Positions 3,836-27,573 of a DNA stretch of 29,757 nucleotides are shown here, in pieces. Origin of the DNA: Patescibacteria group bacterium (GTDB taxonomy: Bacteria; Patescibacteriota; Minisyncoccia; Minisyncoccales; DG-74-1). Numbering within the stretch: the stretch's first letter is position 1; every line of letters starts with the position of its first letter. The position numbers and the translations under genes are program-made. The notes beneath the pieces were generated by a model. It ran no database searches. It saw only the letters and a program-made list of their open reading frames with translations, and had not been told where the DNA came from. Location: NCBI GenBank assembly GCA_030016465.1, contig JASEJL010000001.1, positions 1 through 29,757 of the forward strand, given 5' to 3'.

Positions 3836-5185
3836 ATGCTTAGCGAAGAATTGTGGCAGGCGGTTTTAGCCCAAATCCAATTGAATATTTCTCCGGCCAA
3901 TTTTGCTACTTGGTTTAAAAATACAGAAATTACCTCTCAAAAAGATGGCCGAGTTGTTATTTCTACTCCAAATTCTTTTGTTAAGGAATGGTTGGAAAAA
4001 AAATACAGTAAAAATATTTTTAGAATTTTGCATAGTTTGGATGAACAAATCAAAGAAGTAAGTTTTGAAATCAGAAAAACAGGATTGAAAGTTTCAAAAC
4101 AAACAGCAGTTTCTCTCCCCAGTGAAGGTCAACTAGAATTCCAAGAACTGGAAATTGACCGTCAAACAAACCTTAACCCGCGCTATACTTTTGAAAATTT
4201 CGTTGTTGGTTCTTTTAATGAACTAGCTCAGGCCGCCGCTTTTGCCACTGCCAAAAACCCTGGTCAGATTTATAATCCCCTTTTTATTTATGGTGGGGTG
4301 GGGCTTGGTAAAACTCATCTCTTACAGGCAGTTGGCAATAAAGTGATTAAAATTTTTCCTGAAAAAAAGATAAAATATCTTCCGGCTGAAAAATTTACTT
4401 CTGAGGTAGTGACAGCTATTAGAAATCGAGAGATTGAGAATTTTAAATTAAAATACCAGAAATTTGATGTTTTGATTTTAGATGACGTCCATTTTTTAGC
4501 CGGGAAAGAAAAAACTCAGGAAGAATTTTTCCACATTTTTAATGCTCTTTATGAAAAAAATAAACAAATTATTCTTTCTTCTGATAAGCCGCCAAAAGCC
4601 ATTCCGGCTCTGACCGAGAGATTAAGGTCGCGTTTTGAAGGAGGAATGATAGCCGATATCAGTTACCCGGATTATGAAACCAGAATCGCTATCTTGAAAA
4701 CTAAATGCCTTGAGAGAAAAACTGAATTTTCAGAAGAGGTTTTGGGATATATTGCGGCGAATATCCAAAAAAATATTAGGGAATTAGAAGGAGCTCTAAA
4801 CCGCTTAATTGCCTACCAAAGACTTAATAATCGGTCGCCTGATTTAGAAATCACTAAAACATTACTAACGAATTTAATCTCGACCCCCAGTAAAGTTGTT
4901 AGTATTAAAAAAATAATTCAGGCAGTAGTTGAGTTTTATGATTTAAAAGAAAAAGAGATTCTTTCTTCTTCAAGAAAAAAAGAGATAGTTAAACCAAGAC
5001 AAATTGCTATGTATTTATTAAGAGAAGAATTAAAAAGTTCTTTTCCTTTTATTGGTAGGCGGTTTGGCGGAAAAGATCATACCACCGCCATCCATGCCTA
5101 TAAAAAAATTATTAAGGAATTAGAAAAAAATAACCAATTAGAGGAGGAATTAAATTTGATTAAACAGAGGATTTTTAGTGGATAA
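3836..5185 (+). CDS. dnaA: Chromosomal replication initiator DnaA
   Basis: NPRYTFENFVVG, Walker A GGVGLGKTHLL, DDVHFLAGKEKTQEEFFH, domain IV GGKDHTTAIHA. Start placed at ATG 3836 (MLSEELWQAVL) rather than the GTG at 3782. Confidence 0.98.
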   Translation: MLSEELWQAVLAQIQLNISPANFATWFKNTEITSQKDGRVVISTPNSFVKEWLEKKYSKNIFRILHSLDEQIKEVSFEIRKTGLKVSKQTAVSLPSEGQLEFQELEIDRQTNLNPRYTFENFVVGSFNELAQAAAFATAKNPGQIYNPLFIYGGVGLGKTHLLQAVGNKVIKIFPEKKIKYLPAEKFTSEVVTAIRNREIENFKLKYQKFDVLILDDVHFLAGKEKTQEEFFHIFNALYEKNKQIILSSDKPPKAIPALTERLRSRFEGGMIADISYPDYETRIAILKTKCLERKTEFSEEVLGYIAANIQKNIRELEGALNRLIAYQRLNNRSPDLEITKTLLTNLISTPSKVVSIKKIIQAVVEFYDLKEKEILSSSRKKEIVKPRQIAMYLLREELKSSFPFIGRRFGGKDHTTAIHAYKKIIKELEKNNQLEEELNLIKQRIFSG

Positions 5186-5325
5186 TTCTGTTTTGATTTA
5201 ATTATCTATTTTAGAAAACAATTTTTCCTTTTTTATTAAACAGTTTTTCCTTAACTTCTTCTAATCTCTTTTTAAAGAAAAAATCAAAACAGTTTTTATT
5301 AACAATAACAATTAAAATAATATAC
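5177..5325. other. Candidate oriC segment (dnaA-dnaN spacer; the AT-rich 3629-3835 region may be part of it)
   Basis: AGTGGATAA at 5177-5185 (1 mismatch to the TGTGGATAA box), TTATTAACA at 5296-5304, three AAACA(A/G)TTTTT repeats, very AT-rich. TGTGGATTT lies at 3781-3789 upstream of dnaA. Confidence 0.55.
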
Positions 5326-10797: not shown

Positions 10798-11532
10798 TCA
10801 CGGTTTTAGATTCGAATAAATTTCTTGAACAGCTTCATTTTCATCAAGAGCTTCAAAAAGTTTTTGACAGTCCTTTTTTTGTTGCTCATTTAATTCAATC
10901 ATTTCTTTAGCTACCCAATCTAGAGAAACTGACTCAATTGTAATTTTTTTCTCTTCTAAATTTTTCTTTACTTTTTCTAACTCCTCGGGTTTGGTATAAA
11001 CATTCAAAAGATCATTATGCCAATAAATATCAGTGGCTCCTGCTTCAATTGCCGTCAATTCCAATTGTTCTTTTGTTTGAAAATTAGAAATCGGAAGTTG
11101 GAGATTTACTGTTATACAACCTTTTCTTTCAAACATCCATTTTACCGCCCCTTCGCCAACTAATTTTCCACCGTTTTGATTCAAAATCTGCTTTATCTCT
11201 CCCAAGGTGCGATTTTTGTTATCAGTAATTCCTTCAATAATAATTGCTACCCCTGCCGGGCCATAAGCTTCAAATGTTACTTCTTCCAGTTTCTCTCCTG
11301 GTAGTTCGCCGCTAGCTCTTTTAATTGCTCGTTCAATATTTTCTTTTGGAAGATTACAGTTTTTAGCAGTTTCAATGGCTAGTCTTAATTTAGAGTTAGT
11401 TTCTGGATTTGGTCCGCCTGCTTTTACAGCAACCGAAATTAACCGGGCTATTTTGGAAAAAATCTGTGCCCTTTTTTTATCGCTGGCTTCTTTGATTCTT
11501 CTAACAGTTTTGCTATGACTATGACCACTCAT
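10798..11532 (-). CDS. yebC: YebC/PmpR family protein
   Basis: MSGHSHSKT, FEAYGPAGVAIIIEGITDNKNRT, EAVQEIYSN. Confidence 0.96.
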   Translation of the reverse strand: MSGHSHSKTVRRIKEASDKKRAQIFSKIARLISVAVKAGGPNPETNSKLRLAIETAKNCNLPKENIERAIKRASGELPGEKLEEVTFEAYGPAGVAIIIEGITDNKNRTLGEIKQILNQNGGKLVGEGAVKWMFERKGCITVNLQLPISNFQTKEQLELTAIEAGATDIYWHNDLLNVYTKPEELEKVKKNLEEKKITIESVSLDWVAKEMIELNEQQKKDCQKLFEALDENEAVQEIYSNLKP

Positions 11533-11553: not shown

Positions 11554-12330
11554 TTAATCTTTTTTAAGTATTAAAATTATCACTCCGGAGAAAGTTGCGA
11601 TGATTAAGGCAGTTAGAAAAACAAAAAGATATTTCGGAATTTCTCTGCCTAAAGATTTTTGCTCAAAAGGTTCGAGGGTTGCCGCTAATCTCTTTTTAAG
11701 AAATTCGGTTTTTTCGATTTTCGGTTCAATTTCTTTGATTTCTTGAGTCAAGATAATATTTTCTAAATCAGGAGTTAAAATTGTCCCGAAAGATAAATTA
11801 TTGGTTCAGACCTTATTGGCAATTCTAATTGAGATTCTGACTGAGTTTCTTTTTTGGCAAGAGTTTTCGTTTTGGGCTAAGAGGATTCAAAAGAGAGATA
11901 TAAATCAAAATCTTGGCTATTATTGTTTGTGTTTTGATAGTTTTCGTTCAACGATTTTGTTTTTAATTGTTGATTTTTCAATGGGTTTTCTGGAAAAGAC
12001 AAACCTTCAACAAAAGGTTTTTGGCTTTCTCCCCAGGCCAGAGCATCAAGTTATACCTTCTGGATTTAACAGAGCAATACTATTATTTTTTGCTAAAGTG
12101 GCCTTGCTCCAGACATTGGCGCCAACAGCAAGATGGAAATTGTCTTTAGAATTAGCCCAGAGAAAATAACCTTTGGCTGGAATTTTGCTTTGCTGGGGAA
12201 AGACCCGAATTGAAGATTCACTACCGCTGGCTACTCTTTTTCTTAATTTATAGCCAGCAATATTTAAATCTTCATTTGAAAGGTTATAAATTTTTATAAA
12301 ATCATCAGAAGATTTCTCTCCTCTATGTAC
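11554..12330 (-). pseudogene. Decayed lamin-tail-domain (LTD) surface protein with a C-terminal membrane anchor
   Basis: Stitched reading GEKSSDDFIKIYNLSNEDLNIAGYKLRK..KGYFLWAN..NNSIALLNPEG/LDALAWG..QNTNNNSQDF. Frameshift near 12051, in-frame TAG near 11878, another shift near 11780, no start codon. The 65-aa ORF at 11554-11751 is the TM tail. Confidence 0.7.
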
Positions 12331-12346
12331 CGAGTGCGAACAAGGC

Positions 12347-12375
12347 TTGACAAAATTTCCATAATGTTATATTAT
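12347..12375 (+). promoter_or_regulatory. Sigma70-type promoter for the orphan structured RNA
   Basis: TTGACA (12347-12352), 17-nt spacer, TATTAT (12370-12375). No plus-strand CDS follows. Confidence 0.6.
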
Positions 12376-12384
12376 TATACTATT

Positions 12385-12514
12385 AAGTTAGCCCGGAGCT
12401 GAGGGTAAGGATTTCTTTTAGCTCGGATGGTCTGGCAAAAGCGAGGCCTCTCCTCGGAGAAGTCCTAAAGCTTTAGTCCTATACTAAGTACTGCCCTCGG
12501 CTCCGGGCTAATTT
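12385..12514 (+). ncRNA. Unassigned structured RNA of about 130 nt
   Basis: 20-bp closing stem (12388-12407 with 12492-12511), 9-bp inner stem (12408-12416 with 12458-12466) and an apical hairpin. Every non-Watson-Crick position in the two long stems is U-G on the plus strand. Confidence 0.7.
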
Positions 12515-12525
12515 TATGGGAAGTA

Positions 12526-13830
12526 TTATATTTGTGCCACTCTTTCCACTTCTTCAATCGTGGTAATTCCTTCTAAAACTTTAATTAGTCCATCTTGATA
12601 CATTAAGACCATTCCTTTCTTTATTGCCAATTCCCTCATATCAACAATGGAAGGAGAAGTTAAGATAAATCTTTCCATTTCATCGTCAACCAAAAACGTC
12701 TCATAAATGCCAATTCTCCCCCGATAACCGGTAAAATTACAATCTGGACAACCTTTTGTTTTAGGAATTTTCAACTTCGGGTTTAAAAAAGAAGGAGGCA
12801 AAATTTCTTTTCTAACCCTTTTTAAACTTTCTTTTAATTTTTTAAGTTCAGTTGGCGAAGGAAAGATAAACTCAACACATTTTTTACAAACCTTTCTTGG
12901 TAATCTCTGAGCAACAATCATATTGATAGCCGGCGCAATTGAAACCGGTCTAACTCCTAAATCAATCAATCTGGCTACCGCTCCGGCTGCATCATTGGTA
13001 TGCAGGGTGGAGAAAACCAAATGTCCGGTCAAAGCCGCTTGCAAAGCGATTTCAGCTGTTTCCTTATCTCTAATTTCTCCCACCAAAACAACATCAGGGT
13101 CCTGTCTCATAATTGACCTTAAGCCGTTAGCAAAAGTATACCCTTTCGAAGGATCAACCTGGGTTTGGGAAAGTCCTTCTAAATGGTATTCCACTGGGTC
13201 TTCAATGGTAATAATTTTAATTTCTGGTTTATTTATTTTTTTTAAAATAGCATAGAGGGTGGTGGTTTTTCCTGAACCAGTGGGACCGGTCACAATAATC
13301 ATACCATTTGGTCTTTTAATTTCCTTATTGAATATTTCCGCGATATCTTTTCTTAAACCTAGAGCTTCTATCTCAATTAGGTTTTTGGGGTTTAAAATTC
13401 TTAAAACAATAGTTTCTCCATATTCAGCTGGTAGGGTTGAAGCTCTAATTTCAATCGTTGTTTCTGCCATCAAAATAGTAAATCGGCCATCTTGGGGCCG
13501 GTTAGTGACATTTAATTTAAGTCCGGAAAGAAGTTTAATTCTTGAAAGAAGAGCTTTGTAGACTTTTAAATCAAAAATTATGATATCGTGCAAGATTCCA
13601 TCAATTCTTATTCTTAGTTTGGCTTTTTTTTCTTCTGGCTCAATATGAATATCAGAAGCGTCAAGAGAAATTGCTCCGGCCAAAATAGTCATCAGAAGTT
13701 CAGTAACTGAAGCAGTCAAGAGTTGTTCAGTTTTTTTTCCAAAAGTAGAGATATTTTTAACCTCTTTTTGGATTTCAGTGAGTTTAGTCAGAGAGATTTT
13801 TACTTCTCCGGTAATTTTCTCTCTTTCCAT
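12526..13830 (-). CDS. pilB: Type IV pilus / type II secretion assembly ATPase (PilB/GspE family), lacking the long N-terminal domain
   Basis: ASDIHIEP, PQDGR, Walker A GPTGSGKTTT, TIEDPVEY, RQDPDVVLVGEIRD, Zn motif CKKC..CPDC, GYRGR. Confidence 0.9.
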   Translation of the reverse strand: MEREKITGEVKISLTKLTEIQKEVKNISTFGKKTEQLLTASVTELLMTILAGAISLDASDIHIEPEEKKAKLRIRIDGILHDIIIFDLKVYKALLSRIKLLSGLKLNVTNRPQDGRFTILMAETTIEIRASTLPAEYGETIVLRILNPKNLIEIEALGLRKDIAEIFNKEIKRPNGMIIVTGPTGSGKTTTLYAILKKINKPEIKIITIEDPVEYHLEGLSQTQVDPSKGYTFANGLRSIMRQDPDVVLVGEIRDKETAEIALQAALTGHLVFSTLHTNDAAGAVARLIDLGVRPVSIAPAINMIVAQRLPRKVCKKCVEFIFPSPTELKKLKESLKRVRKEILPPSFLNPKLKIPKTKGCPDCNFTGYRGRIGIYETFLVDDEMERFILTSPSIVDMRELAIKKGMVLMYQDGLIKVLEGITTIEEVERVAQI

Positions 13831-26384: not shown

Positions 26385-26455
26385 GCGGGTGTAGCACAGT
26401 GGTAGTGCATCTGGTTGCCAATCAGAGTACACGGGTTCGATTCCCGTCACCCGCT
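26385..26455 (+). tRNA. tRNA-Gly(GCC), CCA not encoded
   Basis: Acceptor GCGGGTG/CACCCGC, D arm GCAC/GTGC, anticodon loop TT-GCC-AA, T arm ACGGG-TTCGATT-CCCGT, discriminator U. Confidence 0.96.
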
Positions 26456-27497: not shown

Positions 27498-27573
27498 GGG
27501 CATGTAGCTCAGTGGTTAGAGCATCAAGCTTATAACTTGAGGGTCCCAGGTTCGAGTCCTGGCATGCCCACCA
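27498..27573 (+). tRNA. tRNA-Ile(UAU), CCA encoded
   Basis: Acceptor GGGCATG/CATGCCC, anticodon arm TCAAG-CT-TAT-AA-CTTGA, T arm CCAGG-TTCGAGT-CCTGG, A73, CCA. Confidence 0.95.

Follow-up and report, generated by a model that had tools for sequence, protein, structure and literature searches.

Comparative sequence analysis points to an uncatalogued, class-wide structured RNA gene convergent with a short pilB-type gene in Patescibacteria

Comparative sequence analysis indicates that the window, by which we mean the whole stretch of 29,757 nt analysed here (contig JASEJL010000001.1 of the patescibacterial assembly GCA_030016465.1), carries a structured RNA gene that is real, uncatalogued and class-wide in its distribution (Table 1). 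The RNA folds as a three-way junction of about 130 nt, and we infer that its 5' end lies at approximately 12382–12385 and its 3' end within the U-tract at 12512–12515. Folding of positions 12380–12515 of the plus strand with RNAfold gave a minimum free energy of -72.5 kcal/mol vs -41.7 ± 3.6 kcal/mol for shuffled sequences (z = -8.5, with 0 of 200 shuffles as good); the minus strand of the same interval reached z = -4.0 only. A preliminary description of this DNA had proposed a closing stem, an inner stem, an apical AAAA hairpin and a 25-nt bubble able to form a small hairpin, and RNAfold reproduced this overall layout, with 23 bp in the closing stem P1 and 11 bp in the inner stem.

Table 1 Features of the RNA gene and its neighbours in the window (R1 and R2 are the covariance models described in the text; n is the number of aligned homologues)
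Feature	Position	Strand	Evidence or remark
yebC, divergent upstream neighbour	10798..11532	-	Pfam; synteny
Unassigned 122-aa ORF	11801-12169		Between yebC and the RNA gene
-35 hexamer TTGACA	12347..12352	+	Promoter scan; whole promoter 11/12 match
-10 hexamer TATTAT, 17-nt spacer	12370..12375	+	Promoter scan
RNA gene	12385..12518	+	Covariance-model match 120.6 bits (R1), 107.9 bits (R2); fold z = -8.5
P1 closing stem, 23 bp	12385..12407 with 12492..12514	+	14/14 modelled pairs compensatory; 96.4% of cells paired
P2 stem, 11 bp	12408..12418 with 12456..12466	+	Compensatory changes in 11/12 modelled pairs
Asymmetric internal loop (UAG..), then invariant GGA and bulged U	12419..12428	+	G-C, G-C and A-U (near-)invariant, n = 97
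P3 apical hairpin with G.G mismatch (G.U in other homologues) and variable loop	12429..12448	+	
Conserved core, 3' side: 2-nt bulge, invariant UCC, UC	12449..12455	+	Family consensus ..CUCCUCGG
Junction strand with weak hairpin P4, 25 nt, one-sided	12467..12491	+	Sequence conserved: AAACUU..GUUCC.AA..CU.AAGU
P1 3' strand and U-tract	12492..12518	+	UUUU after stem; predicted intrinsic terminator of the RNA
Short PilB/GspE-type ATPase gene, 434 aa	12526..13830	-	Pfam T2SSE E = 6e-123; NCBIfam GspE/PilB below equivalog cut-offs

The first homologues were obtained by blastn from other families of the same order, each with a TTGACA/TATAAT promoter and the same fold. A covariance model built from six homologues (R1) matched 126 of the 151 genomes of the order, in most of them at a single site, with scores of 35–133 bits; some genomes without an R1 match hold diverged copies in the expected place (27 bits in G017, a weak one in G014). 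A second model, built from 31 sequences (R2), matched 33 genomes that belong to the class but to other orders (top scores 50–76 bits), and gave 0 of 147 matches in genomes of the phylum from outside the order. The named matches are metagenome-assembled genomes (MAGs) of Parcubacteria/Patescibacteria. Six records were recovered by an exact-word scan of named genomes, all six with the full RNA, under the labels Parcubacteria, Patescibacteria, ‘Saccharibacteria’ and, for one oddly labelled MAG, ‘Humimicrobiaceae’; the sequencing runs listed as sharing part of the words comprised no RNA run, only DNA runs from groundwater and aquifer metagenomes. Three genomes showed more than one copy. Genome G024 has two on contig C5 (L219:1399-1536 and 4003-4140), 2.6 kb apart, the second of which scores 102 vs 108 bits and converges on a different 194-aa ORF, not on pilB. 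In G109:C33 (L218:263-402 and 419-558) two copies stand in tandem with 16 nt between them, which leaves no room for a second promoter, and in G026 the RNA and pilB occur as a pair on each of two contigs, which strain mixture may explain. A mobile or viral element was considered and rejected, as the gene is mostly single-copy and has no match in phage records or viral contigs.

Covariation among the homologues, which the preliminary description had named as a check, proved to be strong. Across 97 sense-strand homologues aligned to R2, compensatory changes were found in 31 of the 36 pairs, standard pairs occupied 93.9% of cells vs 82.2% in shuffles and at most 63% with the partners slid, and cells with a double change numbered 521 vs 156 expected; 0 of 500 shuffles reached any of the covariation measures. 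The alignment was fitted to the R2 model and favours the structure for that reason, but the slid controls and a MAFFT-based RNAalifold analysis of six sequences, which gave 17 of 36 pairs as compensatory, speak for a genuine signal. In the third helix, made up of the invariant GGA/UCC, five P3 pairs and one G-C past the G.G mismatch, five of nine pairs covary. The same set of homologues fixes the strand, because G.U pairs outnumber A.C by about six to one (12.4% vs 2.0% of cells, n = 97), and pairing is likewise better on the plus strand than on the minus strand (93.9% vs 83.5%). The copy in the window has five U.G pairs and no A.C in the family alignment; three U.G positions in the two long stems had originally been read as marking the strand and selection on RNA structure, and this reading holds for the family as a whole.

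The most conserved nucleotides are the UAG of the internal loop, the invariant GG(A), the GG that precedes the apical hairpin and the ..CUCCUCGG 3' side, the last lying in the most conserved stretch of the family (12449..12455). A UUAG and GGAU consensus is kept in homologues from other orders, together with other loop and junction nucleotides. The sequence of the apical loop, AAAA in the window copy, varies among homologues. Family covariation pairs G12425/G12426/A12427 invariantly with U12451/C12452/C12453, two bases off the pairing in the single-sequence fold. For P4, a small hairpin is possible in 96 of the 97 homologues, with energies of approximately -2 to -5 kcal/mol among the 40 printed; RNAalifold returned no consensus structure for it, and solid covariation is absent. 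Several readings of these elements were rejected by inspection: a short ORF of 13 codons in the window copy is not conserved among the homologues, the conserved loops do not fit a K-turn, loop E, T-loop or anticodon loop, and kissing or pseudoknot pairing of the apical or internal loop with P4 has no consistent covariation by eye.

The sigma70 promoter attributed to the RNA in the preliminary description is not peculiar to the window, where TTGACA-17-TATTAT matches the consensus at 11 of 12 positions. At the best upstream site, 85 of the 97 homologous loci match TTGACA-17-TATAAT at 11 or more of 12 positions. Among the 95 loci that score at least 9/12, 92 have TTGACA without a mismatch as the -35 hexamer and 88 have a spacer of 17 nt, and the -10 hexamer usually ends 8–10 nt before position 1 of the model. 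In most of the loci printed, which come from different families, the spacer holds a block (..AAATT...CATAAT..) similar to that at 12353-12369 of the window; such conservation, beyond what a spacer needs, may mark the site of a regulator.

At the other end of the gene, a G+C-rich stem is followed directly by a U-tract and preceded by a 5' A-tract, the make-up of an intrinsic bidirectional terminator, at which termination is predicted. The consensus tails of the family pair A-rich 5' with U-rich 3' sequence (AAAUAG..stem..CUAUUUU), and P1 reads as a terminator on both strands for this reason. A simple terminator scan did not report P1, probably since the enclosed loop is far above its 3–8-nt limit. 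On sequence grounds P1, read from the minus strand, probably also terminates the convergent pilB-type gene, because its 5' flank is A-rich and the pilB stop falls within about 10 nt of it, leaving no room for another terminator. A shared terminator of this kind could by itself explain why the RNA and pilB stay together.

It is nonetheless highly improbable that the locus is not an RNA gene at all and consists only of a bidirectional terminator, if an elaborate one, or of an inverted repeat at the level of DNA. The long, near-perfect inverted repeat between convergent units would suit such a reading, as would the weak score that the covariance model gives to the opposite strand. Against it, nearly all loci have a consensus promoter at a set spacing from the RNA, G.U exceeds A.C by 6:1, conservation extends to the asymmetric internal loops and the junction strand, of which a terminator has no need, and an element present in single copy is not a mobile repeat.

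The convergence on the 3' end of pilB seen in the preliminary description is present in the window, where the genes lie tail-to-tail and the stop codon is 8 nt past the RNA match, and it recurs throughout the class. Of 30 loci with long flanks, 29 place the RNA tail-to-tail with the short PilB orthologue, typically across a gap of 5–15 nt; in 91 of the 97 loci a PilB C-terminus is encoded no more than 150 nt away on the other strand, and most of the stops fall within ±10 nt of the point where the model ends at its 3' side. A single high-scoring copy of the short PilB orthologue, 54–81% identical, is present in 143 of the 151 genomes of the order, and three genomes of the order lack both it and the RNA. 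In the top five loci from other orders the RNA likewise converges on a PilB homologue (45–52% identical). The ATPase encoded in the window has no long N-terminal domain, and its gene stands apart from genes for a pilus platform or pilins. On the upstream side, ruvB takes the divergent place of yebC in many loci of the same and other orders, starting about 50–280 nt from the RNA on the other strand. In the window's genome, the assembly of which is 94.65% complete, tblastn with the RuvB of G023 did not detect RuvB, the best hit (E = 8e-4) being an unrelated AAA region. Further neighbours in the window are tsaE and a gene for a 5'-3' exonuclease.

This arrangement makes local regulation a serious rival to a function in trans. 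The RNA would then act through convergent transcription and as antisense to the 3' end of pilB mRNA (double-stranded RNA, RNase III, polymerase collision), and/or through a divergent promoter region shared with ruvB or yebC. The position of the pilB stop close to the RNA match in so many loci speaks for it, as do the retention of the arrangement in other orders and the proximity of the ruvB start. Since a terminator for pilB alone would have no space, transcripts of pilB would have to enter the RNA gene in antisense, and the mRNA should then carry the full RNA in antisense. Given the class-wide link with pilB, the main role of the RNA could be local rather than in trans. We nevertheless regard this as unlikely on balance. 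The partners of a cis-antisense pair change together, which leaves loops free to drift, yet the loops are conserved across the class, and the excess of G.U signifies selection on the plus-strand fold. The second, intact copy in G024 lies beside another gene. Furthermore, G023 keeps pilB, with ruvB directly downstream, and the RNA was not detected there; from its genus, G096 has no match and G137 only a weak one inside an ORF (26% GC), which is probably false, and so at least in G023, and probably in its genus, the RNA is dispensable. Family f12 likewise retains pilB while the RNA was not detected in it. Complementarity to the pilB translation start was not seen either (z ~0 in 7 loci), in what is a crude and weak test.

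The orphan status claimed for the RNA withstood a check against Rfam. A search of the whole window with Rfam 15 returned two tRNAs only and nothing at the RNA locus, and permissive scans of the locus and 20 homologues gave noise only. The two tRNA genes (26385-26455 and 27498-27570, both on the plus strand) are the sole matches in the window at gathering score. Identity with tmRNA, RNase P RNA or 5S rRNA was rejected, as these are present elsewhere in the genome, on contigs C21 (beside smpB), C14 and C115; the tmRNA on C21 was missed by aragorn. A motif scan brought up by chance a G+C-rich element of more than 190 nt in this genome of 35% G+C, near-identical on contigs C17 (-, ~7896), C85 (-, ~227) and C103 (+, ~2633), which starts with TAGTGAGGTGCCCAGCTGAAGG and contains GGGAGGGTGGTGGG and its complement.

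Signal recognition particle (SRP) RNA was the first suspect, as 59 of 61 relatives have no RF00169 match, and it was rejected when Ffh and FtsY were not found. A highly diverged SRP (4.5S) RNA would fill a slot that looks empty in these relatives, and the asymmetric loops and G.G mismatch of the hairpin arm are in keeping with it; even so, this reading is effectively refuted. The absence of the helix-8 motif reported in the preliminary description was confirmed, RF00169 and RF01854 have no match at the locus or in the genome, and the apical loop is variable. The Ffh M domain (PF02978) was found in none of 41 relatives and none of the 121 phylum genomes searched, no SRP54-type GTPase domain (PF00448, Ffh or FtsY) rose above noise in 13 genomes, and tblastn of E. 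coli Ffh against the window's genome gave no match. SRP subunits are reported to be absent in many CPR bacteria (PMC8080830), with which the absence of M-domain matches from our phylum sample, and of Ffh, FtsY and SRP RNA matches from the window's genome, agrees. Two SRP-like sequences were nevertheless met within the order, which is otherwise without SRP: an intergenic canonical helix-8 motif of 32 bits in G001 (C14:12894-12953; L021:1505-1550) and a full small SRP RNA of 72.6 bits at a contig end in G053 (C13:29-128). The contig of G001 that carries the RNA copy is apparently the same as an NCBI record labelled ‘Candidatus Humimicrobiaceae’ (same position, near-identical model score), and for this reason contamination or mis-binning is likely.

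The likeness to 6S RNA drawn in the preliminary description stands as a resemblance and fails as kinship. The RNA is a rod with an interruption, has a strong promoter and is present once per genome, and some bacteria carry two 6S RNAs, which gives a precedent for a miniature 6S-type RNA that sequesters the RNA polymerase holoenzyme. We consider this very unlikely. RF00013 has no match over 12250-12600 at E up to 10, in the whole genome at E up to 0.001, or in the 20 homologues; moreover, at 130 nt the RNA is short, and the large two-sided bubble of 6S RNA is absent from the aligned homologues, in which the 5' junction strand measures about 1–5 nt and the open 3' side 21–45 nt, so that there is no template-side bubble. 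The same genomes hold a separate 6S-type RNA family, which is why we rejected a 6S identity for the RNA in the window. RF00013 matches 22 of 151 genomes of the phylum and, weakly, G020 and G056, which belong to the same order and also carry the window-type RNA. An nhmmer profile of these matches led to positions 5161-5294 (+) of contig C40 in the window's genome (G000), where a 6S-type RNA runs from a TTGACA/TATAAT promoter to a terminator and combines a covarying closing stem with the bubble motif UUUUUUUAGGGAG..CACCCAC (GGGAG..CACCCAC). With a 6S model made from the RF00013 matches of the phylum (R3), the C40 RNA is the sole match in that genome (34.7 bits, E ~0.008), clear homologues appear in G001, G006 and G008, and four of five genomes give one match each, never at the locus of the window RNA. 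Homologues of the 6S-type RNA are thus known from G001, G006, G008, G020 and G056. RF00013 itself does not score the C40 RNA, and a Patescibacteria-specific 6S model would improve annotation.

As for function, we propose that this is a stable RNA that works in trans, as part of a ribonucleoprotein (RNP) or as a protein decoy, with its closing stem doubling as a bidirectional terminator, and we give this proposal an even chance of being correct. The near-consensus sigma70 promoter would drive an independent RNA of about 130 nt, which is probably abundant. The transcript would fold into P1, a long P2-P3 arm with the invariant internal loop (UAG..GGAU vs ..CUCCUC) and a short P4 hairpin or junction strand; P1 and the U-tract would end it and protect both ends, P1 most likely serving the convergent short pilB-type gene as well. 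To judge from the pattern of conservation, the invariant internal loop and the P4 region are the predicted protein-binding sites. Stable RNAs that work as particles with protein include 6S, 4.5S and Y RNAs. An RNP is suggested here by the protected ends, the rigid covarying rod, the consensus promoter, the mostly single copy and the invariant nucleotides in the internal loop and junction hairpin. Conservation of the loops and the junction across orders argues in the same direction, because neither a cis-antisense RNA nor a pure terminator would need it, and the second copy in G024 implies independence from adjacency to pilB.

Conserved blocks in the loops might alternatively serve for base-pairing in trans, with the P4 loop GUUCC.AA or the anti-Shine-Dalgarno-like CUCCUC as the part of a small RNA that pairs with target mRNAs. 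The C/U-rich seeds of RsaE/RoxS-type sRNAs mask ribosome binding sites, and CUCCUC resembles them; as in the genes of classical sRNAs, transcription would also run from a dedicated promoter to an intrinsic terminator. We judge this quite unlikely nonetheless, as a rigid covarying rod makes up most of the molecule, CUCCUC is largely paired, conservation at the level of a class is unusual for such sRNAs, and the crude test on the pilB start regions of 7 loci found no target.

The position of the gene between genes for two ring ATPases, PilB-type and RuvB, provides concrete candidates for a partner of the proposed RNP. The RNA might be a cofactor or nucleic-acid mimic for the adjoining ring ATPase, either forming a particle with the N-terminally truncated PilB-type ATPase, similar to pRNA and perhaps concerned with DNA uptake, or acting as a branched-junction decoy for RuvB/Ruv. 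This more specific idea is a long shot; if true, it would amount to a new kind of RNA–protein machine in bacteria that also lack SRP.

We know of very few RNAs that are conserved across a class with such covariation, and almost all of those known to us do something central. CPR bacteria, including the Parcubacteria, are uncultured and have tiny genomes from which standard machinery has been lost, here including SRP in its entirety. With a consensus promoter and presence in 126 of 151 genomes of the order, the RNA is thus a strong lead to unknown CPR biology, and since Rfam has no model for it, the family also fills a gap in genome annotation.

Among known systems, bacterial SRP (4.5S) RNA is of similar size, pairs its 5' end with its 3' end and likewise has asymmetric internal loops in a hairpin arm, but the RNA described here has no helix-8 motifs, its apical loop is variable and the organism is without Ffh and FtsY. 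Like 6S RNA (SsrS, RF00013), it is a stable rod, interrupted but mostly double-stranded, that has a strong sigma70 promoter of its own, one copy per genome and conservation over a wide taxon; it differs in length (130 nt vs 150–200 nt for 6S RNA) and in having neither the two-sided central bubble nor a match to RF00013. The pRNA of the phi29 type, an RNA of about 120 nt with a three-way junction and a closing helix of its 5' and 3' ends, works with a ring ATPase. Size, junction and closing helix are shared with it, and the gene in the window adjoins genes for ring ATPases (PilB-type, often RuvB); this is an analogy only, as there is no similarity in sequence or model, no phage context and, by eye, no covarying loop–loop complementarity. 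The orphan non-coding RNA classes, such as the raiA motif, HEARO and OLE, are likewise known from conservation and covariation, form their own transcription units and belong to one lineage. The RNA of the window has no match to those Rfam models, is much smaller than OLE and differs from all three in its fixed tail-to-tail link with a gene for a PilB-type ATPase.
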